A stretch of DNA of 64,000 nt from Candidatus Latescibacterota bacterium (GTDB taxonomy: Bacteria; Latescibacterota; UBA2968). The notes beneath the pieces were generated by a model. It was not told the origin of the DNA. It searched no databases and saw nothing but the letters and a program-made list of their open reading frames with translations. The stretch covers positions 3,072,001 through 3,136,000 of the forward strand of contig OZ242311.1 of NCBI GenBank assembly GCA_965207885.1, read 5' to 3'. Within the stretch, counting starts at the first letter, position 1. Every line of letters starts with the position of its first letter. Positions 4,530-46,605 of this stretch are shown in pieces. The translations under genes were made by a program, and so were the position numbers.

Positions 4530-4530
4530 T

Positions 4531-4568: not shown

Positions 4569-4578
4569 GATTGTGTGT

Positions 4579-4755: not shown

Positions 4756-4847
4756 TAGATTTCCTTTCTGATACGGGATGGCATCAGGGAGAGGGGGAGG
4801 GGAGTCTGGGAAAGGGAATAGGAATATAGGACAAGCCGGGGCTGTCG

Positions 4848-10420: not shown

Positions 10421-10423
10421 GCA

Positions 10424-26742: not shown

Positions 26743-26771
26743 TTGACAATATGGAAAAATAATACTAATTT
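26743..26771 (+). promoter_or_regulatory. Sigma70-like promoter of the HTH/coiled-coil gene
   Basis: Exact TTGACA at 26743, TAATTT 17 nt downstream, and a GGGAGG RBS before ATG 26821. Confidence 0.6.
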
Positions 26772-26820
26772 AATGGAAAATTATTGTAAATAAATTGGAA
26801 TTTAAAAAGGGAGGAAAGAG

Positions 26821-27423
26821 ATGGAAAATTATGGAATTACTGAGGCTGCAAAAATTCTTAAAGTTACTGATAAAACAATAAGAAATTACATAAATAGAGG
26901 TTTTTTAAAGCCCGAAAAATGGAATGGAACCTGGCGTATATCCAGAGGTGAAATTGAGGAATTATTTAAGAAAAAATTTGGAAAAAAAATGATAGAAAAC
27001 CAGATTAACTTGAGCCATAATCTGGATCAAATTCTCGTCGAAAAATCCGAATTTGAAGCTCAACAACAGCAATTGGGAAAATTGGCAGCGATCGAAACAG
27101 TTGAAAGGGAACTGAGAGCGGAAATTCGCAATATAAATGAACGCAATGCACAATTAGAGGCTTCATCAGCCTCTGGATGGACGGAAGCACGGGCGTTGAA
27201 AGAAGAACTGGAAAAAACACGAGAAGAGCTGAATATGGCGGAAGAAAGGGGAAAAAAAGCAGAACAAGACGCAAATTGGCTGCGCAGACAACAAAAAGAA
27301 GTGGAAATAACCGCTCAGAAAAGCGCTGAAACGATTCAAAAACTCCGCGAAGAGAATCAACGGCTGTCAGATCTGTTATATCAACGGGCTCTTGGACTTG
27401 GGCGCGCGGATGTGAGAGATTAG
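26821..27423 (+). CDS. Excisionase/MerR-like winged-HTH protein with long C-terminal coiled coil
   Basis: YGITEAAKILKVTDKTIRNYI.RG.L......WRI (HTH_17/Xis-like), followed by about 120 aa of E/K/Q/R-rich heptads. Confidence 0.8.
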   Translation: MENYGITEAAKILKVTDKTIRNYINRGFLKPEKWNGTWRISRGEIEELFKKKFGKKMIENQINLSHNLDQILVEKSEFEAQQQQLGKLAAIETVERELRAEIRNINERNAQLEASSASGWTEARALKEELEKTREELNMAEERGKKAEQDANWLRRQQKEVEITAQKSAETIQKLREENQRLSDLLYQRALGLGRADVRD

Positions 27424-27520
27424 CACCACAAACACCAGTAAAATGAAATAATAGGTATTACATCAAGCCTTGATATAAGGATGGGTATTATACAGCAGTT
27501 TTAGGCTGATTTTGGTAGTA

Positions 27521-27548
27521 AGTTTACATAATGTATCTTATGCCGTAA
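27521..27548 (-). other. dif-like XerC/XerD recombination site (probable chromosome terminus)
   Basis: Minus strand TTACGGCATAA-GATACA-TTATGTAAACT has the 11-6-11 layout of E. coli dif (GGTGCGCATAA-TGTATA-TTATGTTAAAT). It is intergenic and sits where gene orientation converges. Confidence 0.8.
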
Positions 27549-27632
27549 TTTTTACTGTGATTTTCTATCGCGTCATAACATCCGTAAATCAGGCCGTTGG
27601 GTCTATTTGGGAACCTCATGGTTTTTTCCTTA

Positions 27633-27680
27633 AAAACAAAATCCCTGAGAAGCGTTTTTCTGCTCCCCAGGGATTTGTTT
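27633..27680. terminator. Probable terminator between convergent genes
   Basis: Imperfect stem AAACAAAATCCCTG...CAGGGATTTGTTT. Confidence 0.5.
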
Positions 27681-27716
27681 GAAAAAATAGTATTGTGCCA
27701 AATTCAAAGATTTGCG

Positions 27717-28379
27717 CTAATCTATCTCAATACCCATCATGTTCAATTGCCCGCGTGCAAATCTCGTGACAGACGACTCATTGTATTCTTTGACGATCTT
27801 TTGATACGCCTCACTCGCTTGCTGGGGCATTTTGCCGAGTTCGTAACATCTGCCGGCTTCCTTCAGGGCTATCGGTGCAAAAGGCGATCCGGGTTGCGCT
27901 TCGGCAAAAGCTGTGAACTGTTGACCTGCTTCGGCGAATTCTCCTTCGCTTTCAAGACAGGACGCCAAACCCGACCAGGCACCATACCCCAATGGTCCAT
28001 CTACTGGGTATTCATCCAGATATTGCTGAAAATATGTGCGGGCCTCTGGAATGCGACCTTCTTCATAATGCAAATTGGCCAGAGCCATCAGTGCTTCGCC
28101 CGCTTCGGCTTCGCCTGCGTAGGTTTCCATTACTTCTTGAGATGAGGCAATCGCATCTTCTACGCGCCCTTCATAAAGTGCGATATAAACGTCTCCGAGA
28201 GCTATGCGAGCCGCGTCTGCGCGTTGTGTTTGTCCGCGATAAAAAAACAGGACAATCAACGCGGCGACAATGGCAATGCCAAATCCCGTGAGGATTCTGA
28301 TATAATTTGCTTCAATCTGGCCCCAGACCCTGAGAAACCAGACCAGTATGTCTTCTTGTTGCGGCTGTGGTTGCTGCAT
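27717..28379 (-). CDS. Membrane-anchored TPR protein (YfgM-like)
   Basis: Single N-terminal TM helix followed by TPR repeats (A...F....YP pattern). Confidence 0.75.
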   Translation of the reverse strand: MQQPQPQQEDILVWFLRVWGQIEANYIRILTGFGIAIVAALIVLFFYRGQTQRADAARIALGDVYIALYEGRVEDAIASSQEVMETYAGEAEAGEALMALANLHYEEGRIPEARTYFQQYLDEYPVDGPLGYGAWSGLASCLESEGEFAEAGQQFTAFAEAQPGSPFAPIALKEAGRCYELGKMPQQASEAYQKIVKEYNESSVTRFARGQLNMMGIEID

Positions 28380-28467
28380 AGAGGTTCTCCTCCCCTACCC
28401 TGTTATGAGATATTAAAGTGATAAGGTGAACAAGGTATATAAATCGCGCAATTTGGGCAAGAGAAAG

Positions 28468-28497
28468 AAAAAAACCGTTCTATAAGAGCGGTTTTTT
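28468..28497 (-). terminator. Terminator ending the transporter operon
   Basis: AAAAACCG.TCT/AGA.CGGTTTTT hairpin with a T-run on the minus strand, just after the stop at 28505. Confidence 0.7.
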
Positions 28498-28504
28498 GGA
28501 GTAA

Positions 28505-29239
28505 TCACAGTAGTTTTTCGCGCTCTATCATTCGTCTCAGAGCCAGAAAAATAAACAATATGCCCAGAATCGCAATGCCCGCACGGTTTAAGACCACGCG
28601 ATTTATCCACAGGCTGGTATCTAAATCTGAAGGCGGATCAAATGGCTTGAGAAAAAGGTAATACGATGTCTCTTCAAATATCTCCGTAGAAAGCAAAATC
28701 GCAATCAAAAGTCCCACGGCGAGCATGCCAGCCGCATTGCCACTGCGGAACAAAACAGAAAACAAAAATGTGGCTCCCACCATAAAGAAGGCGGGGATAC
28801 ATGCATTCAATCCGCCTAGAAGGTAGGGGAATTCCGCAAAAAAATAGTAGGAAATCGTGCTCATTGCCATCAGCGTGATAAATAGTGCAGCACTGATCGA
28901 CACAATTCTCACGGCCCACGTCGCGTAGTGGCTGACCGCCGTGCTGAAAAGAATTTCAAGCGTATCATTATCCCGCTCCCCCGACACCAGATCCATCGTC
29001 AGGTAAATCGCAAGCACCGTGCCCGGTACTTCAACCAATACATGGAGGGCTTGTTCGACTGAAAGCCCTTCACCCGGACGCCAGATTGCAATCGCGTACA
29101 AAATTGCGTAATACGCGACAATCCCGCCAAACATAAAAATCATTTTGCGGTGAAACACGATTCTCATGCTCAGGCTGTGCAATTTGCCTACGAAAAAGAG
29201 CAACTCACGCCATGTTAGACTGTTTGTATTCATCGCCAT
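28505..29239 (-). CDS. ABC-2 type transporter permease
   Basis: About 6 TM helices and a DLVSGERDNDTLEILFS coupling motif; start overlaps the end of the upstream fusion gene. Confidence 0.8.
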   Translation of the reverse strand: MAMNTNSLTWRELLFFVGKLHSLSMRIVFHRKMIFMFGGIVAYYAILYAIAIWRPGEGLSVEQALHVLVEVPGTVLAIYLTMDLVSGERDNDTLEILFSTAVSHYATWAVRIVSISAALFITLMAMSTISYYFFAEFPYLLGGLNACIPAFFMVGATFLFSVLFRSGNAAGMLAVGLLIAILLSTEIFEETSYYLFLKPFDPPSDLDTSLWINRVVLNRAGIAILGILFIFLALRRMIEREKLL

Positions 29240-32200
29240 GTCGCAAAAGATAAAGGTACGCATCTTCGAGGGTGGGCGCAACAGCACGCGCTTCTGGGAT
29301 GGGATCAGTAGCGAGGAATCGCACCCGAATCCCGTCGGGCACGCGCACATGTGTAATCATATCCAGGTCGCGTTCCAGCGCTTCAAAACGCGGATCTGGC
29401 AGCAGAGCCTCCCACACCTTATCGCGCGCCAAATCGCGCATCTCAATCGGGGTTCCCGTATAAAGCAACTTGCCGTGATTCAGCACGGCCAATCGGTTGC
29501 AACTACCCGAAATATCTTCGACAATATGCGTAGAAAAAATAATGATTTTTTCCTGGCTAAATCGCGCCAGCAGATTTCTGAACCGGATACGCTCGAGTGG
29601 GTCCAATCCCGCTGTCGGCTCATCCACCACAATAATCTGCGGCAAGTGCAACAGGGTTTGTGCAATGCCCACGCGCTGTTTCATACCGCCGGAGAACGAC
29701 CCAATCAGATCGTCTCGCCTATCCCACAGATTGACCTGCTCCAGACATTCCTGAACGCGCTTGCGTCGTGCTACCCCATCCTTAAATCCCTCTAAAAGCG
29801 CGCGATACTCCAGATAATTATACGCAGACATGTGCAGGTACAGGCCAAAGTGCTGCGGCAAATATCCAATGACCCCCTGCATATTCCGATGTGTAAGTGG
29901 TATTTTACCATTTGCGAGTACCGACCCGTAATTTGACGACAAAACCCGACACACAATCCGCATCAGCGTGGTCTTGCCCGCGCCATTGGGCCCCAAAAGC
30001 CCAAACATCCCGCGCGGAATATCGAGACTCACACCGCCGAGAGCCTGGAATTGCGGGCGCGGAACACCAATCAGGGGTATGGCTGCAGCGCCGCGGTACA
30101 CGATGCCCTTAACAGGACCTAATTTGCCCGGTATATGCTCGGGATCAACGCGACCATTTGCTACGCGATTTGCCAAAAATCCGATGATGCGATAGAGCAA
30201 GTAGATTGCAGAAGTGGCGATGGTCAAAGATATAAGTTCCAAACGCCAATGGATAAAGGCGATAAAGACCAGCGGCAAAATCAATCGGACGATTTGTGAT
30301 ATCCATCTGTTCTCAATCTGAAAATCGCGCAAAGCCGCCGCGCATAGCACGAGGTGATGTATGAGGCCCCATATAGCAAGCCCCGCCAAAAATATCCAGG
30401 CTCCCTGTTCAAAATAGGTTTCCAAGTAAATCAAAAGTGCCAGAAGTGGTAACTTCCACCACAAACTGTCCCTGATCGCCTTTTTATCTACCAATACCTG
30501 CCCGCGCTCTAAAAGGCGCTGATGACGCCGCTTAAAGCGATCCCATTCATGCTTAAATCGCCCCGGCGCACCGTAAATTTTTGTCAGATTGCGAATTTCG
30601 AGATGCTCAATATTGCCGATCTCAGCAAGAGAAGCCATACGCGCGCGATAAATGCGTTGCACTATCCAGATCACACCCATACACAACATCCACGCTGGCA
30701 ATGCCAAAAGATAGGTCCAGAACAAACTCTGGTAATAATCGTCAACCCAATACGTCAATCCCGCGGCTGCTGTTGTTCCCAATACGATCCCGAACCAGCC
30801 AATATCCGTAAGCCAGGCTTTGGTCTGGTCAATTCCCATGTACACCACGGGAATAAATACGAGGGTGGAAACTGTTGAAACCGCCAGCCCTCCGATTACC
30901 ACAATCGCAAAGGGTGGCCAAATTTCGTAATCGCCGCCAAATATGAGTGCCAGAGGCAACATGCCCAAAATGGTGGTTGCCGAAGTCATTAATACAGGAC
31001 GCACGCGCGACCGGCTCGCCGTGAGCACCGCGCGTTCTCGCCTGAACCCACGGCGGCGAAGGGTTTCAATCGCATCAATCAGCACGATCCCATTGTTGAC
31101 GGCAATACCGCTCAAAACAATAAGCCCCAACAGTGCCATTGGCGCTTCTTGTGAGGTCAATCCCGTCCCCGATAAGATCAGTGCCCAGCACGATCCAATA
31201 ATTGCTGCGGGCAACGTGCACAAAATAATCACAGGCGCAGAAAGCGATTCAAACAAAGAGGCCAAAATCATAAAAATCAATAGAGCGGCAATGCCCATCA
31301 TCCAGTAATAAATTGTCTCTTCCTCTGCCTCAATCATTTCGATACTATACCCTTCGGGCAGCACCATTTCAGAGACCACAGCTTGCACATAAGCGCGGGA
31401 GGCTTCCAGCAGAGGTTGAGACTGCAAAATTTCTTCGGCAAAGCGGTACGAGACAATCACGCGCCGCGATTGATCGGTGCGCAAAATCATGCTCCTGCCC
31501 TGATCCCGGCGCACATGCGAAACTTCTACAAGGGGGATATAAGTCCCCCCCGTACCCAGAATCGGCGTCTGTCTCAATCCCGCAATACCCTCCCCCTCTT
31601 CTTCCGGGTCTTCGACATTGCGAACATCAATCGGGATTTCAGTGCCTTCGGGTGTGAGAAATGAAATATTGGATCGCGCACCGCGCGGATTGGCGTCGGA
31701 TACGGCATTGAGCACCTGGCGCACCTGCAATCGCCGATCAAACATTATTTCTTCATCGGGCAAAACATGCACTTCAGATGCGCCGCGTTCTGCATCGGCT
31801 CTTACGCTATTCGGATCGATTTCCTCCAATTCTTCGAGGCGATAGACCAGATCGTCGGCAAGCATTTGAAGCACCGTAAAATCATAGCCGCGAATGACAG
31901 CCATTTCCGAAGGCGCGCCACCTTCCAGATTGAATCCGCCCGAGGCCTGACGGGTGCCCCGAATACCGCCTCCCCCGCCTCCCCCTCGGCCCCCACCACC
32001 ACCTCCCCTGCCCGTGCGCGCGATGGCCTCATAACTCACAATCGCATTTTGGACTTCACCGAATGACTCTTCGAGATTTTCCTTGATGAGATCGACAGAA
32101 ATCTGGTCGGGGCGTTCGGATAAGGGCAAAAGCGCTACATTGATACTCGCCTGGGTTTCGCTGATACTGGTCGTAAAGCGATCTATACCTTTGAGATCTC

Positions 32201-33932
32201 GCACAGCACTTTCAATTTCGCCAACAACAGCATCAAGGGCTTCAATAGTCGTGCCTTCGGGCATGCTGATATAGACGGTAAAACGGCTTTCCTCGCGGCG
32301 AATATCTTGTTGCAGCATATAGAAAAAAGAAATGATCAGCGTAATGACAAGCGCGCCGACAATACCCAGTGACACGCTAATTCTGTGGCGCAAGCCCGCT
32401 TTGAGGCACACCGTGTACATCTCGATCAATGCGCCTGTTCCCGTCGGTGGTCGAGATGCGAGAGAAAGGGTTTTCGATGCGAGGGCAGGCACAAGTGTGA
32501 GGGCTACGAGCAGAGAGGCAAGCAGAGGAAAGGCGATGGACAGCGCGAATTCTCGCAGGATATCCTGAAAGTCGCTTTGAATAAAAACAACAGGTAAAAA
32601 GACTGTAATGGTTGTCGCGGTTGCCGCAACAACGGCGCGTGCGACCTCATCGGTTCCTGCTTTTGCGGCTTCTTTGGGGGATTTGCCCTGTTCAAAATGC
32701 TTGAAGATATTTTCCATGACCACAATGCCATTGTCCATCAACATGCCAACTGCAAGCGCGAGGCCGCACATCGAGAGCACGTTCAAACTGAGATCCCACA
32801 TATACATCAAATTAAATGTGAGCAACAAAGAACACGGAATGGCGAGGAGCAAAACAGCGACAAAACGCAAATTTCTCAAAAATAAGAACAAAACAAAAAG
32901 CCCGAGCAATCCCCCGACAACAGCGGCCCGTTTGAGAAAATTGAGGGCTTCGTTCATAATCTCTGCCTGATTCTGGCTGATCACGAGCTGGATATTTTCA
33001 TAGGCGAGATCGCCGTTGACGCGTTCTATGGTGTCTTCGAGTTCTCCTGCAAGTTCGATGAGATTGGCTTCATCGTCTTTTTGAATGCGGATGCCAACGG
33101 CGGCTTTGCCATTGATTCGTTGCAGGTCTGTACGCTCCTGAAGGCCGTAGCGAATTTTGGCAATGTCGCCAAGGTGCAGGGGCAATTCCGGTTTGATAAC
33201 GACTCTGCGGATTTGCACGAGGTCTGTAAATTGGCCCTGAATGCTGACCGCATAAGCCTGGTCGCCGTCGTACACTCGCCCGAGATATTGTCGTCGCGTA
33301 TTAAACGCATTGATGCGATTGCGAACATCGGACATCGAAAGCTGGTGCGCCTGCAGCATCAATGGATCGACAATAATTTCAATAGCCGTCCTTTGCCCAC
33401 CCAGGACCTGCGCGTTGACAACGCCATCGACCGCTTCCAATTCCGGTCTGATTTTCTCCTCGGCAAATTCGCGCAACCAGTTTATATCGCCTTCGCCCAA
33501 CACGTGGATTTGCATCACCGATGCACTCAGATCAGAGGAATCAAAGCGCTGTATGTTGACCCGCGTTCTTGCGGGCAAAAGCGGTTGCAGGCGCGTGATG
33601 CGGCTTTCGAGCTGTAGCAGGGCGAATTTCATATCCGTATTGGGCGCGTAGGAAATGCGTACCCCGCCGTTATTCTGGCGCGAAAAGGACTCATACGCCT
33701 CAATGCCTTCGAGTTTGCCCACCTCTCTCTCGACGGGCATCACCAATTCCCGCTCGACCTGTTCGGGCGAATAGCCCTGCTGAGTGACTGTGACAAAGAC
33801 CTCCGGGCGGACGAGTTCGGGAAATATCTGAACGGGCAACCGATCCAATGAAATCGCGCCTAAAATAGCCAGACCTATAAAAAACATGGCCGTAGTCACG
33901 GGCCGCAGAACGGCAATACCAGCAAGTGTCAC
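29205..33932 (-). CDS. RND (AcrB-like) permease fused to extra TM helices and an ABC ATPase (1575 aa)
   Basis: RND motifs RPVTT, [26 protein letters not shown] and [11 protein letters not shown]. C-terminal NBD with [23 protein letters not shown] and STH, all in one frame. Confidence 0.9.
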   Translation of the reverse strand: [1575 protein letters not shown]

Positions 33933-36900
33933 GCGGATTTCCTCCGGAGGCGATCAATTAGTTCATACATGGTGGGTATCACGAGTAAGGTCATCAATGT
34001 CGATGTCACCAGGCCGGCAATGACGGCAATAGCCATAGGCGCGCGCAATTTTGCCCCCTCGCCAAAGCCGATTGCCATGGGCAGCAGGGCGAGAATAGTC
34101 GTCGCACTCGTCATCATAATGGGGCGCAAGCGGTCTTGACCGCCCTGTAGAATCGCTTCTCGCAACGTCAGGCCAGCTTGCCTGAGCTGGTTGATGCGAT
34201 CCACGAGAATGATCGCATCGTTGACCGCAATACCGCCTAGCATAATGATGCCGATATAGGCCATCACACTGAGCGGTTCGCCCAAAAAATAGAATCCAAA
34301 TATCACGCCGACGCCGGCTAAGGGAACGGAAAACATGACGGTAAACGGATGGAGCGTGGATTCAAATAGCGATGCCATCACCATATAGACCAGCACAATC
34401 GAAAGCAGGAGCGCAAATTTGAGACTTTCAAATGATGCCGCTCGCTCGCGCTCTTCTCCGCCAATTTCAATGCGATACCCCGACGGCACAACCACTTCCT
34501 GCATGGTGGCGCGTACGTCGGCAACGGCTTCACTTAAAATGCGTCCTTCTGTGAGATATCCCGTAATGCGCCCTACGCGACGCTGATCTTCTCTCAAAAT
34601 TTCGCGGGGACCTTCAATAATATTGAGCTCGGCAATATCCCCCAACGTCAGGATCGCGCCATCTGTTCCTTCGATTTGCATGGTGTGGAGTTCGCGCAGA
34701 TCAATATCTCGATATTTTACCCGAATATCCCGCGTGCGCTGGTCTTTAGACAGTTCGCCAGCAACTTCACCCGATAATTGTCTTTCCAATGTGCGGCTGA
34801 TGGTCTGGGTGGTCAATCCGAATGCCGCCGCTACCTCATCGCGAATCGCCAGATCGACTTCTGGCTGCCCGCCCTGAAAGCTCGTGCGCACATTGTACAC
34901 CGAAGGCAGATCCTCAATCCTCGTCTGAAGCTCTTTTGTGATGCGTGCCAAAATATCGAGATTTTCTCCAGACACTTCGACCTGAATGGGCGCTTCTTGT
35001 CCCCCCATTACGCCTTCAAGCGCGGTTTCGTGCAACTTGTATTTCACTTCGATATCGGGCATGGCACTTAAAATGGGATCCAGGTCGCGCACCAATTCGC
35101 TGACGCTGCGCGACCGCTGTGTGTGCAACGCCACCGATAGAGTCGCGCGATTGGGACCCGTCGGTTCGCCTCCGGTCGATATCCGAGCGGGGTTGAGGCC
35201 GGTCAGCGCGTACACATGCGCCACATCACTCCCGCCAACGCTTTCGACAATCTCTTTGACGTGCAGGGCGACCTGATCGCTCAGTTCCACACGCGAGCCT
35301 TCGGACAATGTGAGGTCAATTTGGAATAGCCCTTGATCTTCGCGCGGAATAAATTCTGTCTGCAACTCGCGGGCGATATACCCGGTTCCGCCCAGAATGA
35401 GCAATACGACGCCGAGCATGATGAGTTTGCGGTTCAAAATACCATTGAGAAACCGATAGTATTTGTCCGACCGAACAGTCGTTTTGTGCGTCGTATTCAA
35501 CCGTCTAAAGATGCGCGACGTCAGCATCGGAATCGTCGTCATTGCCACAACCAGAGAAGACAACAGAGAAAATGCAACTGTCCATGCCTGATCCACAAAG
35601 AGTTTGCCCGCCAGCCCCTGCAAATAGACAATGGGCAAGAAGACAGCCACGGTCGTCAGCGTTGAAGCCAAAATTGCCACGCCGACTTCAGAGGCGCCGC
35701 GGCTCGATGCTGTGCGCGCGTCCTCGCCGCTTTCCAGGTGACGATAAATATTCTCAATAACCACAATGGCATTGTCAACGAGCATGCCCGCACCCAGAGC
35801 CAACCCGCCCAGCGTCATAATATTCAGGGACAGCCCTTCAAAGTACATAAGTGTGAATGTCGCCAATACTGAAATGGGAATTGCCAACCCTATCACCAGC
35901 GTCACTGTCCAACTCCGCAACGCGATCAAAAGCACGAGAATCGCCAAAAATGCCCCGTGAATGGCTGATGTTTCGACTTCTCCTATGGCATCTTCGACAA
36001 ATCGCGCCTGGTTTTCGACGGTTGTGAAGTGCATGCCGCTCAGGTCTGCTTCGATATCGTCTATCGCATCCAATACCGTATTGACCACGGCGACTGTATT
36101 GCTACCGGCTTCTTTGTAAATAGCGAGGCCAACGCATTCCCGTCCGTCGAGGCGCACAATGGTTTCTCGCTCTTGATATTCCAGGTCAACCGTGCCCACG
36201 TTGCGCACGCGTACCGGCACGCGATCGCCAGAAACTGTGCCCCCTCCCCCGCGCCTTTCTCCCACGATGACTTCCCGCACATCGTTTATGTCATCTAAGC
36301 GACCGAGGGCTTTGACCAGATACGACTGCTGATTTTCTCTGAGCGTACCTCCGGATACATCGGCATTTGCCTGTGCGATGCGGTTGATGACCGCATCGGA
36401 TGAAAGTCCAAACGCTTCGAGCAAATAAGGATCGAGTGTAACGCGCACTTCCTTTTCCGCTCCCCCTTCCACCTCGGCAGACGCCACGCCGTCGAGGGCT
36501 TCCAATTTGGGTTTGATCAACAATTCTACCGTACCCATCAATGCGTCGAGTTCCGTGTTTTCGTCTGCTGTAATCGCAATGCGCATCACCGCAAGCGAGA
36601 GCGGATCTTCGCGCGTCACATCCAACTGTGATACATCTTCATTGACCGCATAGCGCCCCACTCTTTTTTGCACGTCGAGCAACCCGTAATCCATGTCCGC
36701 ATCCCAGGCAAATTCTGCAATGACCACAGCCTGCCCAGAGCGGGTAATCGAATAGACGCGCTTGACGCCGTTAATCGTGCTCACATCGCGTTCGAGGCGG
36801 CGCGTATAGCTTTCTTCAATCTCGACAGGCGATTTGCCCGGTGCTGTCAGGTCTATGGTGACGACTGGCGTCTGCAAATCGGGCAAGAGATCGGTACCCA

Positions 36901-36994
36901 ACCCGTCTAACGATATCCATCCAAGCAACACTACCGCGAGAGTCGCCATGGCAATCGTCACGGGATATCGCGTTGAAAATTCCGGCAAATTCAT
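33929..36994 (-). CDS. RND efflux permease (AcrB/SwrC-like)
   Basis: RYPVT, [26 protein letters not shown] and [9 protein letters not shown].TT motifs. Confidence 0.93.
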   Translation of the reverse strand: [1021 protein letters not shown]

Positions 36995-38064
36995 CGTCTA
37001 TCTCCCGTGACCCGCACTCGAGTTCGCGGCCTCAGCGTTTCGTAATTGCTCGTGATCAACTGTTCACCTGGTTCAAGTCCTACCACAATTTCCACGCGGT
37101 CTCGGTCTTCCAGACCTGTTTCGACTTCGCGTTGTTGTGCGCGGCCTTCTTCTTCGACGAAAACGACCTTCTGATTTCGCCGCCGCAAAACGAGATTGCG
37201 CGTAATAAGTACGACGTTTTGCCGCGATTCCGTGACTATTTCTGTTTTGACAAACATCCCCGCCCGCAACAGCAAGTCGGGATTATCGACCATTCCGACG
37301 ACCTGAACCGTGCGCGTGACCGGATCAATAGCCGGATCCATTTCAACAATCTCGCCCTCAAAAACTTCTTCGGGCAAAGCGTAATTGCTCACGCGGATGC
37401 TCTGGCCCAATTTCACGTTAATAATCTGGGCATTGGGAATTTTCAGATCGACAAATACCTGTGAATAATCCATAATTTTTGCGATTGCGGTATTCGGCGT
37501 CACCAGCGTTCCCTGCGTAATATCCGCGAGTTCCGACAACACACCCTGTATGGGAGCTAAAAGCCTGGTTTTGTCGATCTTGATGAGGGCATCCTGATAA
37601 TTGGCTTCTGCATCGGCCCAGGCTCTACGCGCACTTTCGACGTCCATTTCCGTTGCCAGTTGTCGGCTAAACAGGGTTTCCTGTTCTTTTAGCGTTCGCT
37701 TGGCTGTTTCAACCGCCAGTTTACGCGCTTCCACCCGTGCGCCGACAACCCATTCGTCGCTGTCGAGTCGCGCTATGGTTTGCCCCCTTCTAACCTCTGC
37801 CCCTTTGGCGAGTAGGCGGTTATTACTCCCCTTGCTCCAGTACAGATTTCCCCGAATCTCCGTTGTGATCTGGGCTTCGCGCACAGGTCTAAGTGTCCCG
37901 GTCGCTGTCACAATGGATTCGATTGTTCCCGTCTCTACGGATTGAACAGTAACGGGAACCGTCAGGTCAACGGTGCGCTGTTCCGCCTGTTGATCACAGG
38001 CGACCAGCCCACAAAGGACAATTGTCAACAGAAATTTTGAGCAAAAATCAAACTTCACGTTCAT
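36991..38064 (-). CDS. Efflux RND periplasmic adaptor (MFP) lipoprotein
   Basis: Lipobox GLVAC; lipoyl motifs G..V.RGQ.IARLD and APIQG; DP.TRT and L.AGMF. Confidence 0.9.
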   Translation of the reverse strand: MNVKFDFCSKFLLTIVLCGLVACDQQAEQRTVDLTVPVTVQSVETGTIESIVTATGTLRPVREAQITTEIRGNLYWSKGSNNRLLAKGAEVRRGQTIARLDSDEWVVGARVEARKLAVETAKRTLKEQETLFSRQLATEMDVESARRAWADAEANYQDALIKIDKTRLLAPIQGVLSELADITQGTLVTPNTAIAKIMDYSQVFVDLKIPNAQIINVKLGQSIRVSNYALPEEVFEGEIVEMDPAIDPVTRTVQVVGMVDNPDLLLRAGMFVKTEIVTESRQNVVLITRNLVLRRRNQKVVFVEEEGRAQQREVETGLEDRDRVEIVVGLEPGEQLITSNYETLRPRTRVRVTGDRR

Positions 38065-38076
38065 TCCTCCGTTAAA

Positions 38077-41000
38077 TTAAAATCCCAAAAATCCGCCGCC
38101 CCCCCTGTTACCACCGGGACCTCGCCTACCATCCCCGACGCGATCACCACCGCCACGTCCGCCACCTGGTCCACCTCTGCCGCGCCCGGTAAAGGTGGGC
38201 ATTTCATCTTCGTAGGCATCGGGGTTTTCCGGATCAAAAAAGCGCCATCGCACGGCATCGGCATAGAGACCCCCTCGCCCTTCTGCGCGGTCAGACAATT
38301 CGACTGCGGCTTCTTCGCCCTCGGTAAATTTGTATCGACCCAGATAATTCCATCCCGCTTTCATCTGGTCGCGTTCTATTTCGATTGTATCGGCTTTGCC
38401 CCCGTGAAAAACCGTGAGTGTAAAGGTCGATGCAATTCGAATGCGCCTGGCCATTGAGGGATCGGGAAAAAAGAAGCTCACATCGTACTCGCCGTCTCTG
38501 GGCATTTGCGCTGCCCAAACCGCAGGCTGTGCACCATCCCCTTGAGACTTTCTTCGGTAATTTGTCTCAAATCGTCCAAAGGCCATTGGCAGTCCCTGTT
38601 CGCGCCAGTTGCCGCCTTTGAGTCCGGGCCGGAAGTAGCGCGTTGCGCGCCGCACGGGCATTGAAAATCCGTCGTCGTCATTATCTACAATAATCTCAAC
38701 AGGACCAGACTCTTCGCCTGTCACGTCTTTGACATAAGCAACTGGAAATCCCTCTGTGACATCTTCGGGAACGCGCACGGGGGACATCAGAGAGCGCCGA
38801 TTGCGCGCAAAAAAGGGTTCGACCATCACCCTGAATGGTTGCTCCCACAGAACCATCGAAACTTCAACCTCCTGTCCCCCTTCAATCTCTACGCCCTTCA
38901 GGGCCTCATCGCCCCGCCCCGTAGCAGTAATTTGCACATATCCCCTGCCCGGTTCGCTATTCTTAATCCGCAGAATCAATTGATAGACCACCATTCCAAA
39001 GCCGTCGTCCATCTTCAGAGCTTTTACCCTTGTGAGGGTATAGCCCGGGATTTCTGTACTAAAAATCCAGTCGTTGACGAGGCGTTGCAATTTTTGGCTC
39101 TCTTCACTTTCTGTGGTATCGCCCACAGCGGCGCGTTCAAAGGTCGAAAAATCGATGTCCTCGTATTTGTGATTGTGGTCTATGTCGTCTAAGACCGTGC
39201 GAAATGTTTCCTCACCTAAAAAAGATTCCATCATTTGAAAAAGTGCGGGTCCCTTGGCGTCGAGAACCTGGCGATAGAGGCCAGCTTGCTTTTCGGGATT
39301 CAAATCGGCAAATGATTTTCGTTGCATTTTCGCAATTAACGTATCCCAGGCAGCACCCGATCCCCCGCCCGAGCCGAAGCGCCCACCGGGACCACCGCGC
39401 CCTCCGGGACCACCGCGCCCTCCGGGACCATCGCGCCCGCCTGGTCCACCACGCCCGCCACCGCGTCGTTGGCTCGAATAAAACGCAGAGGTCATATCGG
39501 TGCTCAAATCATTCTGGAGATACAGGGGCATGCCCTTTTTGAGAAGGGAATGATGTTCGCCCACAAACTGCTTGTCATAAGCCCAGAGTTGAACAACAGG
39601 GCTGCGAAACAACCCACCGGGTTGTCCCTGTCTGCCCGAATTTCCTTCTCGGGAAAAAAAGGTCGAAAAAACCGCGCGTACCAAAAGGTCCTTTTTAATA
39701 TCTTTGGGTTCACGGTTGCCGCGCGAGCGCTCTTGAGAACGCCTAAAATCGCGGGTAAATTGCTGCCTCATGAACACATCTTCTTCAATCATCAACACGC
39801 CGGGCTGTGTCAACCCACCCTTTTCTTCCCAGCCTTCGTAATACCACTGAACGTGGAAGGGAATTTCCACTAGAGAAAGACTGGGATAGGGATATTTCAT
39901 GCCCGATTCCTGCTCCATTGCGTCCATAATTTGCTCAAGTGCGCGCAAAATCTCTTCCTCGGCATCTTCAAAAAATCGGACCGGACGCAGATGCGATGGG
40001 TGGGCGTAAAGGGCGCATTCGACATCGTGAATGGTCGCGCGATAAACGCGGTATTCGCCCGCATTTAGCGATAGGACGGGCACGGGCTTATCAATAACCC
40101 ATTGGCGCGTTACCTGTGTGCCGAGTGTATCGGATTCGCCTACCTGTCCTTGAGTAATGACTTCGATGCCTTGCGGATATGTTATTTGCAAATTTGCCGT
40201 TGAAAAAGAGACCTTACGCGTGTCCTCATAGCCGTAATCAACGCCTGTCACGGGATACCATCGGCTGCGCGGAGGCAAAAAGACGGAATTGTCGCGAATC
40301 CACGCCGTCAAAGAGCCTTTATTAAATATACCAAATGGCCCTTCGCGTTTGCGCAGCTTCGGTCTCGCTTTTTCTCGTTGGAGATCAAAACCATCCGTGT
40401 TAATATCACCCGCATAAGCCAATGTCAGATCGAATTCTCGCTCCGATTGCAGGGGGTTAGCGGGTATGACGCGGATCACGCTTCCCATACGCTCCCACGC
40501 TATTGCGCCGCCATCGCCGCGTGTTAGATTCTGGATTTTGAATCCGGGGTTGAGTGAAAGAATCAGCGTATCGAGCGGAGATTCGTGGGGGTTTTTCAAT
40601 CTAATCGTACCTGAGGCGGCAAGCGGCTCCTCCCCCAAAAGTGTCAATGCCAGATCGTAATGGGTTATTTCCGCAACGGGAATATTCGCTACCGCTTCTT
40701 GTTGCTCTAACAGCGAATGGCGATACGCTTGCCCGTCTTGCGCCGCTGCATCCATATAAAAGTAAAGGCCCACAGCCAGACCAAAACCGGTCACTGCACA
40801 GCCGCGGCCAAACCACCGCGCAATCAAAGAATGTGCAAGACGGGGATACCAATCAATTGAAAAGCCAAAAAATCCAATGCCGAGCAGGATGTAAAACAGG
40901 CGCTTTAGCCCCACTTGCGTCATATCTGCCAGACCAATCAGGTCGGAATAATACAGAGGCGTAAAAAAAGCACCAAAGTCATAGATGCCGTCATATCGCC

Positions 41001-41586
41001 TGCCCAGGAATAACAGGACAGCCAACAAATACCCGATCACAATCAGGGCAACTGCCGCTTGCCGCCGCAACACTGCACCCAGAAAAAATGTCACAGAAGA
41101 CATAAAAATCAGAGCGGGCAGGTTCATGAGCACGAGATAGCTAATATAGGGTTTTATTGTAAATGGATTACCCGTCATACTGATTTTTGCAGCCTGGATA
41201 CTCAGGGTTAAGAGCAGAACGCCCAGACTCAAAAAGACAAGCGCACTAACAATGCCCAGGTACTTACCCGCAACCAGTTCCGCAGTCGAAATGGGACGCC
41301 CGGCCACGACTTCGTAAATATGCGCCTGTTCATCCGCCGCTCTAAAATCCCCCACGATAAATGCTATGACAATGGTCTGCAAGAAACTGTACACTAAAAA
41401 CGGGACATAAGAATCGATTCCCACGGGCAGTTCAGCACCATTGGCTTCTGCTATGGCAAAGCCTATGCCGAGTAAAACGGGAATGCTCATGCCCAGACCG
41501 CCTAAAATACGGAATTTTGTGGTTCTCAAGAGCATTTTGCGCTCATAACGCGCAACACCCCATACATTGTAGAAAATAGATAGCAT
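38077..41586 (-). CDS. ABC-2 permease fused to a degenerate M1 aminopeptidase-like domain and a C-terminal golvesin/xanthan-lyase CBD-like domain
   Basis: N-terminal TMs with RPISTAELVAGKYLG; M1-like HYDL.L, WYP, YPYP.L.LVE and KG..LF.M....LGEE.F; C-terminal IIVDNDD.GF...GWNYLG.Y.F...YADAVRW. Confidence 0.75.
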   Translation of the reverse strand: MLSIFYNVWGVARYERKMLLRTTKFRILGGLGMSIPVLLGIGFAIAEANGAELPVGIDSYVPFLVYSFLQTIVIAFIVGDFRAADEQAHIYEVVAGRPISTAELVAGKYLGIVSALVFLSLGVLLLTLSIQAAKISMTGNPFTIKPYISYLVLMNLPALIFMSSVTFFLGAVLRRQAAVALIVIGYLLAVLLFLGRRYDGIYDFGAFFTPLYYSDLIGLADMTQVGLKRLFYILLGIGFFGFSIDWYPRLAHSLIARWFGRGCAVTGFGLAVGLYFYMDAAAQDGQAYRHSLLEQQEAVANIPVAEITHYDLALTLLGEEPLAASGTIRLKNPHESPLDTLILSLNPGFKIQNLTRGDGGAIAWERMGSVIRVIPANPLQSEREFDLTLAYAGDINTDGFDLQREKARPKLRKREGPFGIFNKGSLTAWIRDNSVFLPPRSRWYPVTGVDYGYEDTRKVSFSTANLQITYPQGIEVITQGQVGESDTLGTQVTRQWVIDKPVPVLSLNAGEYRVYRATIHDVECALYAHPSHLRPVRFFEDAEEEILRALEQIMDAMEQESGMKYPYPSLSLVEIPFHVQWYYEGWEEKGGLTQPGVLMIEEDVFMRQQFTRDFRRSQERSRGNREPKDIKKDLLVRAVFSTFFSREGNSGRQGQPGGLFRSPVVQLWAYDKQFVGEHHSLLKKGMPLYLQNDLSTDMTSAFYSSQRRGGGRGGPGGRDGPGGRGGPGGRGGPGGRFGSGGGSGAAWDTLIAKMQRKSFADLNPEKQAGLYRQVLDAKGPALFQMMESFLGEETFRTVLDDIDHNHKYEDIDFSTFERAAVGDTTESEESQKLQRLVNDWIFSTEIPGYTLTRVKALKMDDGFGMVVYQLILRIKNSEPGRGYVQITATGRGDEALKGVEIEGGQEVEVSMVLWEQPFRVMVEPFFARNRRSLMSPVRVPEDVTEGFPVAYVKDVTGEESGPVEIIVDNDDDGFSMPVRRATRYFRPGLKGGNWREQGLPMAFGRFETNYRRKSQGDGAQPAVWAAQMPRDGEYDVSFFFPDPSMARRIRIASTFTLTVFHGGKADTIEIERDQMKAGWNYLGRYKFTEGEEAAVELSDRAEGRGGLYADAVRWRFFDPENPDAYEDEMPTFTGRGRGGPGGGRGGGDRVGDGRRGPGGNRGGGGFLGF
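39386..39457. repeat. Four 18-bp tandem repeats encoding GRGGPG-like units
   Basis: CCGGGACCACCGCGCCCT twice, then two degenerate copies. Confidence 0.8.
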
Positions 41587-41598
41587 AGTATTAATCCT

Positions 41599-42492
41599 TT
41601 ACGCGGCGATTTCGCCAGTGGTATCGCCCCCGACAAAATAGACATAGGCATCTTCGAGATTGGGCGCGACTGCTTCGGCATCAGCGGGAGGCTCGCCATC
41701 GCCCACCATACGCAAACGCATCAAATCGCCCTCGACATTTACTGTGACTACGCGAAACACCCGCGACAGCATTTCAAAGCCAGCGTCATCGACCTGTACT
41801 TCCCACGTTTTGCCATCGGCTTTTGAAATGAGTTCTCCGGGAGAACCGCGAAAGATCAGACGTCCGGTATCCAGGACCGCGAGATCTTCGCAGGTACTTG
41901 AAATGTCGCCCACAATATGCGTGGAAATCAAAATTGCGCGATCGCTGCTCAAGCGTCCCAAAATACCCCGAAACCGTATGCGCTCTTCCGGGTCAAGTCC
42001 CACGGTGGGTTCATCGACAATGAGAAACTCTGGATCGGTCAAAATGGTCTGTGCAATGCCAAGGCGACGCATCATGCCACCTGAAAACGTGCCCGAACGC
42101 CGATTGCGCGCTTCGTACAATCCGACTTCGTTTAGAGCTTGCTCCACGCGATTCAAACGCGAACTTCTATTATGCATGCCGCCTAAAACAGCCATATAAT
42201 CGAGAAATTCCCAGGCAGTCAGTTGTGGATAGGTCCCAAAATGCTGGGGCAAATATCCCAGGCGCCGGCGAATTTCAGTGCGGTCTTTTACGAGGTCGAA
42301 CTCATCCATGGTCACGTTGCCACTCGATGCGTCCATCTGAGTCGATAAAATTTTAATCAGCGTTGTCTTGCCTGCACCATTGGGTCCCAATAGGCCAAAT
42401 GTTCCGTGCGGAATGGTCAATGTGACATCGTCTAAGGCGGGAACCGCGCCACGTCGATATACTTTTGTCAAGTTTGAAATGCGAATAACCAT
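41599..42492 (-). CDS. ABC transporter ATP-binding protein
   Basis: GPNGAGKT, FSGGMMRR, LIVDEPT and STH motifs; GAGGGG RBS before ATG 42492. Confidence 0.93.
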   Translation of the reverse strand: MVIRISNLTKVYRRGAVPALDDVTLTIPHGTFGLLGPNGAGKTTLIKILSTQMDASSGNVTMDEFDLVKDRTEIRRRLGYLPQHFGTYPQLTAWEFLDYMAVLGGMHNRSSRLNRVEQALNEVGLYEARNRRSGTFSGGMMRRLGIAQTILTDPEFLIVDEPTVGLDPEERIRFRGILGRLSSDRAILISTHIVGDISSTCEDLAVLDTGRLIFRGSPGELISKADGKTWEVQVDDAGFEMLSRVFRVVTVNVEGDLMRLRMVGDGEPPADAEAVAPNLEDAYVYFVGGDTTGEIAA

Positions 42493-42570: not shown

Positions 42571-42596
42571 GCGGTTGGGCCAACCAGCCCAACCGC
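42571..42596 (-). terminator. Hairpin after fdhD
   Basis: GCGGTTGGGC/GCCCAACCGC perfect 10-bp stem. Confidence 0.65.
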
Positions 42597-43909: not shown

Positions 43910-44020
43910 GCATTGTCTAACTATCTATATTTTTGAAACAGGCAGGTAGTAGCATAATGAAGTAAGTCATAAACACAAACGTTTACGCCACAAGCGGTTT
44001 ACAAATGAATCGGTACACAT

Positions 44021-44050
44021 AAAAGGTCCAGTAATTAGCTGGACCTTTTT
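44021..44050. terminator. Bidirectional terminator
   Basis: AAAAGGTCCAG/CTGGACCTTTT stem between convergent genes. Confidence 0.8.
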
Positions 44051-44122
44051 CATTTGAATTATCGAACTGATAACCGAAAGGGTATGAGGTATAATATGCC
44101 GTTGTGCGCCAATTCCTCAAAC

Positions 44123-44208
44123 CTATTCATCTGCTATTGTAGCCGCATCATCTGCTTCTGCTTCAACCTGACTGTTTGATGTCAAAAACTCATACGCTTT
44201 ATTCAACA
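44123..44208 (-). CDS. Exon 2 of the intron-split small gene (encodes ..VLNKAYEFLTSNSQVEAEADDAATIADE*)
   Basis: Continues exon 1 in frame once 44209-46605 is removed; TAG at 44123-44125. Confidence 0.8.
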
Positions 44209-46605
44209 GTAGGGTAGGCTGCTGGCGAGTTACCCAAAGGCACTTTTCCATCAGCCCCCCTCCGAACCGGACGTGATAGTTTCCCATCATCCGGCTCTCC
44301 AGTAACTTTCACCGTTTTGAGGTCGGCCCGCCTCGATGGATGTTGATATGACAGCTTTTACAGACGACAAGTGTTTTTCTGCGTCTTGCTGCCATTTTAT
44401 GTTTCCATCTTGGCTTTTTCTTCCTTCCCGGCTTGTCCACATCCGTTAGTTTGCGTATGTGGTGAACTTCTACTTCTTGCCGAGAACCACATAATTCACA
44501 TTCTGATGCCGTTAAGCGTTGTATTAGCTCGCTACGACTCCAGTATGGTTTTATGTCTTTCAGGCCGTCCTTGATTACCGCGTTCTCTGTGTTGCGTATT
44601 AAGGGAACCCCTCCAAAGTATGCGATTAGGGGCTTTTTACCTTCTCTTTCTACGGTTACTTGTATGCATTTTCGTGGGCCTCTTGGGGTAATTACTTTAC
44701 CCTTATATTTCCTTGCCGTTTTTCTCACTTGCGATTTGTGTTTATTCGCAAGTGTCTTTAGCAGGGACGTTTGTATGACCCATTCCAATTTGCTCAGTCT
44801 CCGTATGTTGTTTGCGAGTTGGTAGTATTGCACAAAGCCTCTATATTCCCTTTGATAGCGGGATATGATGTCAAAGTCGCTGTCCTGTAACAATTGTGGT
44901 CGCGCCTCTGGCTTCCCGTTTCTCATATAGGTATTGCATCTCGCATCACTTACATCTTTGGGGATGTATAAGCCGAGTCTTCCATTAATGGCCCTTTTCT
45001 TAATGTAGCTGTCCATTTGTGTGTTACTGAAATATCCCTTGATTTCGTATCCTAAAAATCTGGCTCTTTCGGTGGTTACGTGGGTTATTAGGGTCTTTTC
45101 TTCTGAAAGTTCGAGCTTCATATCTTGCAGGAATTTCTTTAGAATTGACTTAATTCCCCTTGCTTCCATTTTGGAGCCTACTAATCCTATTAGGAAGTCG
45201 TCAGCGTATCTTATGTAGTATATTCTTTTGAAATCGGGGTCGTCTTGGAGTGAGCAGGGTATTTTCTGCATCTTCTGTCTATACTCCTTTGCTTCTTCAA
45301 ATCGACCTTTCTTTTTCAGGTGATATACTTTGTTAATCAGATACCTGTATTCAGGGTTTTTCTTTCGGCTTTTTCCTTTTGTGAATAGAGATTTGAGGGT
45401 GTTTTCAACAAATTTATCCAGTCTATCGAGGTAGATATTTGAGAGTATCGGGCTTACGATTCCCCCTTGTGGCGTTCCGCTCAAGGTGGGTGTGTAATTC
45501 CAATTCTCCATATATCCTGCTTTGAGTAGATTGGATATTAACCGCAGAAATCGGTTGTCTCGGATTTTCTCTCGGAGTATTGATAGTAAGATTTGGTGGT
45601 CTATATTATCGAAGCACCCCTTAATATCTCCTTCGACAAACCATTTCGTTCCGTTCCACTTTTTGACTGCTTGTAATGCCGTGTGACAGCCTTTATTTGG
45701 TCGGAACCCGTGAGACAAGCTGCTAAATTGCGGTTCATAATACGCTTCTAATATGGAGCGTATTACTTCCTGCACAAGTTTGTCTGTCCACGTAGGAATG
45801 CCTAACGGTCGCATTTTACCGTTTTTCTTTGGTATATGTGTCCGTCTCACTGGAGTCCATCTGAAGCGTTCATAGCGTATTTGTTCTATGATTGCTTTAA
45901 TTTTCTTCAGTGACATTCCATCAACGGTTTCTTCCGTTATACCTTTGGTCATTGCGCCTTTGTTGCGTTGAATGCGACTGTAGGCCCGCAGGTATAGATC
46001 GGGGTTGAACATTTGTCGATAAACGTCTTCAATGGGTAATCCTCTTAAACCTCGATTTCGGATGATACCTAATACTGTTTCGGCGTCTCGCATCTCGCGT
46101 GCCTCCTGTATTATTGTATCCAGTTACCTGTTTTCCTTCGCCTTGTGGACGGCTTTCCCGTCCTCTGACTACTATGAAAACTCCGTTACCATAGGACTCG
46201 CGTCCCGTAGGCAATCCCGTGTTTTTCTGTTGTGGTCTGTATTAGTGTGGGTTAGGTAGTCCACTCATTCCTTAAATGAGCTACATTGCTCATCGTTGGC
46301 AGTTCCAAAGGTTATGGGAAAGCATTGGTTAATTTCCCATAAAACTGATACCGGTATCGGACGACTTTCCGGTAGGGCGAAGCGACCGTCCTTCTGGAAT
46401 TGGACTTCGGGCAGTTTAGCTCTTACCATACCACACAGGTCTTGCGGAGCAAATGTTTTTGTCGCCTTCTCTACATTCTCCGCTTTACGAATATGCTATT
46501 TTCCCTTTCGCCTTTCGGTTCCGGTTGATTCGTTGACCTATGGACGTTCCTTTGAGTCCATCCTGATTTAGTCAGGAATACCACATCAGACGCTACACGG
46601 CGCAC
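44209..46605 (-). mobile_element. Group II intron, IIA/ML (Ll.LtrB-like) class, 2397 nt
   Basis: 5' GTGCG at 46605; domain V GAGCCGGATGATGGGAAACTATCACGTCCGGTTC (44264-44297); domain VI ending CCTACCCTAC at 44209; EBS1 loop complementary to the 5' exon. Confidence 0.93.
44309..46093 (-). CDS. ltrA: Group II intron reverse transcriptase/maturase with HNH endonuclease
   Basis: RPLGIP, SHGFRP, EGDIKGCFD, GTPQGG, RYADD, domain X, and CELCG...EVHH...C..CH. Confidence 0.95.
   Translation of the reverse strand: MRDAETVLGIIRNRGLRGLPIEDVYRQMFNPDLYLRAYSRIQRNKGAMTKGITEETVDGMSLKKIKAIIEQIRYERFRWTPVRRTHIPKKNGKMRPLGIPTWTDKLVQEVIRSILEAYYEPQFSSLSHGFRPNKGCHTALQAVKKWNGTKWFVEGDIKGCFDNIDHQILLSILREKIRDNRFLRLISNLLKAGYMENWNYTPTLSGTPQGGIVSPILSNIYLDRLDKFVENTLKSLFTKGKSRKKNPEYRYLINKVYHLKKKGRFEEAKEYRQKMQKIPCSLQDDPDFKRIYYIRYADDFLIGLVGSKMEARGIKSILKKFLQDMKLELSEEKTLITHVTTERARFLGYEIKGYFSNTQMDSYIKKRAINGRLGLYIPKDVSDARCNTYMRNGKPEARPQLLQDSDFDIISRYQREYRGFVQYYQLANNIRRLSKLEWVIQTSLLKTLANKHKSQVRKTARKYKGKVITPRGPRKCIQVTVEREGKKPLIAYFGGVPLIRNTENAVIKDGLKDIKPYWSRSELIQRLTASECELCGSRQEVEVHHIRKLTDVDKPGRKKKPRWKHKMAARRRKTLVVCKSCHINIHRGGPTSKR

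Follow-up and report, generated by a model that had tools for sequence, protein, structure and literature searches.

Textbooks treat resistance-nodulation-division (RND) and ATP-binding cassette (ABC) efflux systems as belonging to distinct energy classes. RND pumps take their substrates from the periplasm or the outer leaflet, and those of the AcrB/MdtBC type (HAE-1) carry a relay made of D407 and D408 in transmembrane (TM) helix 4 and K940 in TM10 (AcrB numbering). YbhGFSR of E. coli combines a membrane fusion protein (MFP) with an ABC-2 exporter that has two nucleotide-binding domains (NBDs) and two different permeases. Passages of PMC7015380 present MdtABC as a heteromeric RND pump with two related subunits, MdtB and MdtC, that are ancient and co-inherited. 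MacB is a single polypeptide that combines an NBD at its N-terminus with four TM helices and has an FtsX-type fold (in part after passages of PMC8277102). Two-step feeding of RND pumps by inner-membrane transporters, where passages of PMC4338810 treat it, is based on the genetic cooperation of separate proteins. Here we describe a six-gene locus of a Candidatus Latescibacterota bacterium in which the two transporter classes are welded in one polypeptide, the weld, a six-helix module and five or six partner genes being kept across phyla. The locus lies within a stretch of 64,000 nucleotides (nt; contig OZ242311.1 of assembly GCA_965207885.1, positions 3,072,001 to 3,136,000), hereafter the window, to which all coordinates refer.

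The unit occupies positions 28505-42492 and comprises six overlapping or abutting minus-strand open reading frames (ORFs), as a first-pass annotation made from the letters of the window had described it. Gene identities were assigned from the ORF list together with Pfam and NCBIfam profile scans, which bore out this layout. The junctions consist of 4-nt overlaps (MFP/RND-1 and RND-1/RND-2), one 35-nt overlap (fused NBD/Perm2) and 12-nt gaps at the remaining positions. The genes are as follows, from the upstream end:

41599-42492, minus strand: ATPase1, a stand-alone ABC-2-class ATPase of 297 amino acids (aa; ABC_tran 7.1e-31).
38077-41586, minus strand: PermM1, 1169 aa, with about seven N-terminal TM helices, an M1-like ectodomain and a Golvesin_C domain (1e-17).
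36991-38064, minus strand: MFP, the lipoprotein adaptor of the periplasm (TIGR01730 RND_mfp with 189.8 bits, cut-off 94.9; HlyD_D23 4e-26).
33929-36994, minus strand: RND-1, a full-length RND permease of 1021 aa (ACR_tran 8e-232, profile aligned over 3-1020 of 1021).
29205-33932, minus strand: RND-2::NBD, one 1575-aa frame without a stop (ACR_tran 1.6e-178 and ABC_tran 2.9e-25).
28505-29239, minus strand: Perm2, a 244-aa six-TM membrane protein whose start overlaps the end of the NBD by 35 nt.

As in MdtABC-TolC, one MFP gene is followed by two neighbouring RND genes that are paralogues, and MdtB is the nearest solved relative of RND-1 (9lyq_B, 1.5e-93). Unlike in that system, RND-2 is extended by six TM helices and an ABC NBD, and two ABC-2-like modules are also part of the cassette; TM4/TM10 have DN/NN(D) and not the DD/K of MdtB, with equivalog scores far under the cut-offs. 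Like MacAB-TolC, the cassette combines an ATP-driven inner-membrane part that has a large periplasmic domain with an adaptor and, in most lineages, an outer-membrane channel of the TolC kind, but its permeases have six to seven TM helices and are ABC-2-like, an RND pump sits in the same cassette, and Pfam and NCBIfam scans of all six proteins found no MacB/FtsX-type permease family. The YbhGFSR operon likewise encodes an MFP together with two NBDs and two differing permeases, which are of the ABC-2 type there and ABC-2-like here; its NBDs are fused to each other and it has no RND component, whereas here one NBD is fused to an RND subunit and is split by a four-TM insertion. The layout of ATPase1 and PermM1, an ATPase followed by an ABC-2-like TM domain and then an M1 domain, is also found in uncharacterised stand-alone pairs such as that at locus L099, the permease of which matches Peptidase_M1 at 4.8e-13 and ABC2_membrane_5 at 2.8e-6. 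However, the L099 protein keeps an HELSH motif and has neither Golvesin_C nor RND neighbours, while the HEXXH zinc motif is absent from all 24 members of the cassette PermM1 family. Finally, NosDFY offers an NBD with a C-terminal regulatory domain that is among the best fold matches of the fused NBD, but this likeness is one of NBD fold only: the locus shows no NosD or NosY homology, and the Nos system has no RND pump.

None of these systems joins RND and ABC parts in one chain. Full-text literature searches, with subscription-only papers and transporter databases outside their scope, returned no paper that describes an RND-ABC fusion, and none appears in the matched passages of a 2021 Chem Rev review of tripartite pumps. 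Within these sources, the earlier impression that no system of this architecture has been characterised held. The fusion proteins in public databases carry automatic names only.

The fused protein is built from the following parts:

30816-33932, minus strand: RND-2 part, residues 1 to about 1039 (ACR_tran 1.6e-178; RND_permease_2 aligns over 6-1035).
30624-30812, minus strand: two extra TM helices (TM13-14), residues about 1041-1103, after RND TM12 (AlphaFold2 model and hydropathy).
30573-30605, minus strand: first NBD beta-strand and A-loop (LEIRNLTKIY, residues 1110-1120; strand 71-81 of the model).
30159-30485, minus strand: four-TM-helix insertion inside the NBD, residues about 1150-1258 (model helices 111-134, 138-162, 170-192 and 195-219).
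29205-30050, minus strand: NBD core and C-terminal regulatory-type domain, residues about 1295-1575 plus the stop (ABC_tran 2.9e-25).

The AlphaFold2 model, for which 32 sequences were used, covers the final 536 residues (pLDDT 81, pTM 0.60) and comprises two plus four TM helices arranged around a complete NBD that starts at model residue 256. TM13-14 correspond to model helices 2-28 and 31-63, with a block pLDDT of 73-92. About 170 residues carrying four TM helices separate the A-loop strand from the remainder of the NBD; we regard these helices as an insertion because the same strand in ATPase1 runs straight into the NBD. Their Trp and Pro positions are conserved across the 32 sequences. K1118, Y1120 and G1124 are invariant in an alignment of 15 fused proteins, as are the Walker A motif, Q1360, the SGG signature, D1437-E1438 and H1469. 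The fused NBD (NBD2) passes the PF00005 cut-off of 25 with 90 bits, and ATPase1 does so with 108; the two stay below the GldA equivalog TIGR03522, with 177 and 168 bits against a cut-off of 402.6. The top Foldseek matches of the NBD are TM_1403 (4yer, 6.7e-19), NosF (7osf_B, 6.1e-16; 7o0y) and ABCA NBDs, and the modelled fold is thus nearest to ABC-2-class ATPases with a C-terminal regulatory domain. All 54 fused NBDs, drawn from several phyla, fall in a single clade (support 0.998). The linker module (255 residues) belongs to no Pfam family and matches only 46 clusters among 1.84 billion representative proteins; in every full-length match it lies at approximately residues 1030-1290. As a separate observation, the predicted periplasmic part of RND-2 contains a Gly/Arg-rich low-complexity tract at about 31890-31950, and a DNA contig of a related strain has a 3-nt indel at 31993.

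The fusion proves both genuine and ancient. A search with the C-terminal part, limited to long proteins, recovered PF00873 together with PF00005 in 120 of the 120 clusters among the matches listed, which agrees with the architecture of ACR_tran and ABC_tran in one chain that the first-pass annotation had proposed. These clusters are mostly 1540-1650 aa long, and their source names include Latescibacterota, Gemmatimonadota, Acidobacteriota, KSB1, Calditrichota and Bacteroidota; across phyla the fusion and its six-TM module are retained at 25-45% identity. Within the phylum of the window, the linker module was found in 82 of 168 genomes, including 32 of the 52 of high quality, and in all 20 other genomes of the genus. 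No internal stop interrupts any of the 84 phylum matches listed, and those on complete contigs lie in frames of at least 1500 aa. An independent DNA contig (run X5, mostly 90-95% alike) spans 28300-31970 with the fusion in frame; just two changes are listed for it in that interval, an indel of 3 nt within RND-2 and one of 1 nt in the spacer that follows Perm2. Neither relatives nor this contig thus have a stop between the RND and ATPase parts, which the earlier annotation had named as the observation that would speak against a fusion. The database clusters, the phylum frames, the X5 contig and the linker-module search together rule out an artefact of assembly or annotation. Stand-alone proteins made of the six helices and the NBD were sought at 294-938 aa, which gave eight matches; seven also carry PF00873, and the eighth covers 18% of the query. 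The short linker proteins with PF00873 are therefore taken as fragments of fused genes.

The fused gene travels with its partners. From species-representative genomes 80 loci were taken, of which 55 hold the fusion; the other 25, which were left out, are 23 plain ABC ATPases matched through the NBD only, one cassette broken by many frameshifts (L036) and one cut by a contig end (L062). Counting partners only where DNA covers their position, ATPase1 is present in 43 of 43 fusion loci, PermM1 in 46 of 46, MFP in 48 of 48 and RND-1 in 50 of 50, and Perm2 was recovered in all 52, by BLAST in 51 and by reading the ORF in one. Gene order is constant. The six genes thus co-occur well beyond the window, the lack of which the first-pass annotation would have counted against its reading, and form a fixed cassette across several phyla. 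Among 401 evenly sampled Bacteroidota genomes, four hold both the linker module and a full-length PermM1, and the remainder hold neither. The genome of the window carries one copy of the cassette. Cultured carriers, by record names, include Marivirga, Draconibacterium, Maribellus, Parabacteroides massiliensis and Mangrovibacterium marinum, and the stretch itself is present in runs labelled sponge or marine metagenome. In two loci, L012 (Marivirga tractuosa; 2392-5776 and 8479-11677) and L017 (1449-2421 and 8508-11643), partner genes are each found in two ORFs: PermM1 and/or RND-1 or ATPase1 are split and the fused gene is intact, and the sister-species locus L014 is unbroken. These splits could be frameshift errors or marks of decaying cassettes.

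The two RND proteins are strong members of their family, with PF00873 scores of 772 bits for RND-1 and of 596 bits, in two stretches, for RND-2 (cut-off 28). They share about 30% identity. In trees, all 46 RND-1 proteins group together (support 0.999), as do all 50 RND-2 proteins (support 1.0), and by this topology the two are ancient, co-inherited paralogues. Neither reaches NCBIfam RND_permease_2 (NF033617; 622.5 and 483.2 bits against 1250) or the MdtC and MdtB equivalogs (403 against 1774 and 368 against 1584). The TM4 aspartate is kept in both, as Asp407 in 46 of 46 RND-1 and D400 in 50 of 50 RND-2 proteins, and the TM11 arginine R978 of RND-2 is invariant in 15 of 15. Both subunits have Asp-Asn in TM4 and Asn-Asn or Asn-Asp in TM10, so that the Asp-Asp plus Lys relay of the AcrB/MdtBC type is absent. 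We considered that proton coupling had been lost and rejected this explanation: the same TM4 and TM10 pattern occurs in 8 of the 12 RND paralogues of this genome, and it is therefore a subfamily mark that says nothing on energy coupling. The RND-1 and RND-2 genes are adjacent, overlap by 4 nt and are co-inherited; by analogy with MdtBC, the two proteins probably form a heteromeric proton-driven trimer.

The ABC side of the cassette comprises ATPase1, PermM1, NBD2 and Perm2. The ATPase1 frame is open to a TTG at 42564, and homologues align from the ATG at 42492. The Walker A motif, Q-loop, signature, Walker B with its Glu and H-loop can all be read in its translation; judged by motif, both NBDs are catalytically intact. 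ATPase1 is the closest paralogue of the fused NBD in the genome (45% identity, against 39% for the next), and in the tree it falls in a 40-tip clade (support 0.94), in which 35 tips bear the ATPase1 label.

PermM1 ends in a Golvesin_C domain that resembles the C-terminal domain of xanthan lyase (PDB profile match to 6f2p, a Paenibacillus xanthan lyase, 5e-10). It also has profile matches to the M1 fold, namely to M1 factor F3 (6e-7) and to an M1-like protease (3e-6). Golvesin_C is present in 24 of 24 family members and a weak Peptidase_M1 match in 13 of 24; the complete zinc site of M1 aminopeptidases (HEXXH-X18-E) is found in none of them. Read from these motifs, the cassette PermM1 is a derived pseudo-enzyme. 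Its ABC-2 scores are 16.1 bits for ABC2_membrane_5 (cut-off 25) and 21 for GldF (cut-off 288), and ABC2_membrane_2 matches 4 of 24 members, with a best E-value of 2e-9. The topology of PermM1 is predicted from hydropathy alone. The predicted periplasmic part contains Gly/Arg-rich low-complexity tracts such as GGRGGPGGRDGPGGRGG, at about 39360-39480 and 38080-38180. The DNA contig of a related strain has several small indels at 39418-39454, and a similar G-rich stretch is found at the same position of PermM1 in the Bacteroidales locus L016.

The MFP carries a lipobox (LVAC, residues 20-23, read in the translation) and retains the coiled-coil hairpin region. A TolC-like gene (OEP, PF02321) is found neither in the 64-kb window nor in locus L001, so that the earlier remark that the unit has none is correct; the seven OEP genes of the genome lie elsewhere. 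In other lineages this position is filled. An outer-membrane factor (OMF) gene lies between PermM1 and MFP in 47 of 48 covered loci, as an open frame of about 500 aa, and six of the six examples scanned are OEP proteins. Only L001, which at 93% identity is the locus nearest to the window, departs from this. In the phylum as a whole, the six-gene form without OMF occurs in six further genomes (L081-L083 and L086-L088) with 52-92% identity to the window proteins, and the seven-gene form with OMF in two more distant ones (L084/G105 and L085/G011) with 26-51% identity. The presence of two cassette types in one phylum suggests an old split or the transfer of one type. From the OMF in 47 of 48 loci and the two forms in the phylum, it follows that the lineage of the window lost its OMF secondarily. 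The OMF found in the cassette elsewhere also marks the system as a tripartite-type exporter.

For the physical assembly of these proteins, its stoichiometry, the direction of transport, the substrate and the hand-off between the parts, we infer the following scheme. On balance we lean towards the view that the six genes encode one self-contained envelope exporter, in which ABC-2 modules are tethered to a heteromeric RND pump and work in two stages. The cassette, which has seven genes in most lineages, consists there of ATPase1, PermM1, OMF, MFP, RND-1, RND-2 with its six TM helices and NBD, and Perm2; after the loss of the OMF here, the outer-membrane channel would have to come from elsewhere. 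The putative RND-1/RND-2 heterotrimer would be driven by protons and work with the lipoprotein adaptor. The six-helix module ties the ABC-2-class NBD covalently to RND-2 and would so hold the ABC-2 module, formed by NBD2 with Perm2 and also by ATPase1 with PermM1, against the RND pump. In the first stage, the ABC module or modules would spend ATP on drawing an amphiphilic substrate out of the inner membrane or from the cytoplasmic side, or on flipping it; the PermM1 ectodomain, inactive, M1-like and carbohydrate-binding-like, may bind this substrate or guide it. In the second stage, the duct formed by RND, MFP and OMF would expel the substrate across the outer membrane on the proton gradient.

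Two stoichiometries are self-consistent. With one RND-2 per trimer, NBD2 would pair with ATPase1, which is the heterodimer that the first-pass annotation had in mind. With two RND-2 per trimer, NBD2 would pair with itself, and ATPase1 and PermM1 would form a dimer of their own. Gene order tips the balance slightly towards this second arrangement. A tighter version of the two-stage scheme has the fused NBDs, held under the RND heterotrimer by the six additional helices, couple ATP hydrolysis mechanically to the RND cycle or to a direct passing-on of the substrate, so that the whole is a single machine; we consider this possible but clearly less likely than not. It would be the first natural pump to use ATP and a proton gradient in one assembly. 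The cassette encodes a tripartite-type efflux system, with a real chance that it is a new kind of dual-energy machine. The weld makes approachable the question of whether ABC and RND pumps can act as one assembly, as well as the relation between dimeric and trimeric stoichiometry and the role of an inactive M1-peptidase ectodomain on an ABC permease.

Several observations weigh against a single tethered exporter. One heterodimer and two separate homodimeric ABC-2 transporters are equally compatible with the order ATPase1-PermM1 ... NBD2-Perm2, which places an ATPase-permease pair at either end. One protein (P0165, 526 aa) has its Met start at the first extra TM helix, followed by the insertion and the NBD; it may be a rare natural split form, in which case the covalent linkage would not be indispensable. 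In the window the cassette is without a gene for an OMF, and of the seven OEP genes that the genome holds elsewhere, not one is orthologous to the cassette OMF (at most 25% identity). The cassette is patchy, being found in about half of Latescibacterota and about 1% of sampled Bacteroidota, and is therefore an accessory and not a core system. Among 49 loci, no conserved neighbour hints at a substrate or a regulator. In favour of the unit, three metatranscriptome runs from two studies contain contigs that reach 29, 24 and 28 of 30 operon bins and bridge the ATPase1/PermM1, MFP/RND-1, RND-1/RND-2 and NBD/Perm2 junctions, which attests the presence of the operon in RNA libraries but is no proof of transcription or of a single transcript; bins without such cover carry no meaning.

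The assignment of Perm2 belongs with these points. The protein has six hydrophobic segments by hydropathy and matches ABC2_membrane_2 at an E-value of 0.0022 (17.7 bits, against a cut-off of 27.2); each ABC-2 family matches just 4 of 26 Perm2 members, with Pfam scores below cut-off. NCBIfam gave nothing meaningful, a Perm2 profile searched against PDB sequences gave no match at E-values up to 10, and hhalign of Perm2 with the TM domain of PermM1 gave probabilities of 9% and 1.9%, which are not significant. From this sub-threshold resemblance, Perm2 is probably a divergent ABC-2-type permease. Of the "second ABC permease" announced earlier, the six-TM protein at the end of the operon stands, and its ABC label draws on the weak Pfam matches.

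The alternative that fares best is that an ABC-2 system (PermM1 with ATPase1) and a heteromeric RND pump share an operon without any mechanical or substrate coupling, the fusion just keeping a further small ABC-2 module, made of NBD2 and Perm2, in the same place or at the same dosage. The genes are indeed ordered as two classical ATPase-permease pairs, the L099 pair in a Bacteroidota genome shows that an ATPase and an ABC-2/M1 permease can work alone, with no RND protein beside them, and P0165 is a possible split form. The distribution of the parts speaks against such independence. PermM1 of the cassette type, with Golvesin_C and no zinc site, is found only together with the fusion, in the same 4 of 401 genomes, and in every one of the 46 covered fusion loci. 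Moreover, the fusion and its six-TM module have been kept across phyla at 25-45% identity, and the search in the 294-938 aa range yielded no stand-alone form of this module with its NBD (seven of the eight matches having PF00873 and the eighth 18% coverage). We therefore consider mere sharing of an operon unlikely.

Distinctly unlikely, in our view, is a pump gated or doubly energised by ATP, in which two RND-2 protomers of a heterotrimer pair their NBDs and closure is transmitted through the six helices and Perm2 to the TM domain of the RND part, ATP powering or gating the RND cycle besides the proton gradient or in its place. The conserved anatomy is suggestive of this, with four TM helices inserted right after the A-loop, two more continuous with RND TM12 and all catalytic motifs of the NBD invariant; heteromeric RND pumps of two subunits are also known, MdtABC being presented as such in passages of PMC7015380. 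But proton coupling shows no sign of loss, the TM4 Asp being kept in both RND proteins and the TM11 Arg in RND-2, the DN and NN/ND pattern is that of 8 of the 12 ordinary RND paralogues of the genome, and ATPase1 and PermM1 would be left without a role. A mechanotransmitter as in MacB, LolCDE or NosDFY, with ATP hydrolysis moving the pseudo-M1 and carbohydrate-binding-module-like ectodomain of PermM1 so that it binds a ligand of the periplasm or outer leaflet, for instance a peptide or glycoconjugate, and delivers it to the RND porter domains, would suit the size of that ectodomain, its M1 fold without HEXXH (24 of 24), its xanthan-lyase-C-terminal-like domain, the nearness of the NBD fold to NosF and the loading of RND pumps from the periplasm or outer leaflet, but is very improbable given that the topology of PermM1 is a hydropathy prediction, that the Pfam and NCBIfam scans contain no FtsX/MacB-type domain and that ligand binding by the ectodomain is purely conjectural. 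The two-stage exporter remains the reading that we prefer.

Two terminator-like hairpins lie at the edges of the unit:

28469-28497, minus strand: terminator-like hairpin with U-run directly after the Perm2 stop (-9.9 kcal/mol, z -4.81).
42572-42586, minus strand: terminator-like hairpin at the upstream edge, between fdhD and ATPase1 (6 pairs, T-rich tail).

None of 200 shuffles was as good as the hairpin after Perm2, which a consensus scan had missed and which confirms the terminator suggested earlier. The candidate promoter fared differently: a scan that covers the sigma-70 type only found none upstream of ATPase1, where the second hairpin lies instead. The fdhD gene adjoins ATPase1 only in close relatives (L001 and L086), and any other flanking family is shared by at most 4 of 49 loci. 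In run X17, a contig from an RNA library tracks the operon to exactly 42492, the ATG of ATPase1, and continues into unrelated sequence (a 49-letter loose end); related strains therefore have a different upstream neighbour.

A group II intron that looks complete lies on the minus strand at 44209-46093, about 750 nt upstream of fdhD. It consists of an Rfam Intron_gpII domain at 44209-44299 (68.3 bits) and an ORF at 44309-46093 for a reverse transcriptase/maturase/HNH protein (RVT_1 1.7e-37, Intron_maturas2, AI2M HNH). The GC content of the window, about 0.50 elsewhere, dips to 0.40-0.43 at 26001-28000 and at 44001-46000. The second dip coincides with the intron, and the first corresponds to a spacer with small ORFs between gcvT and a TPR gene.

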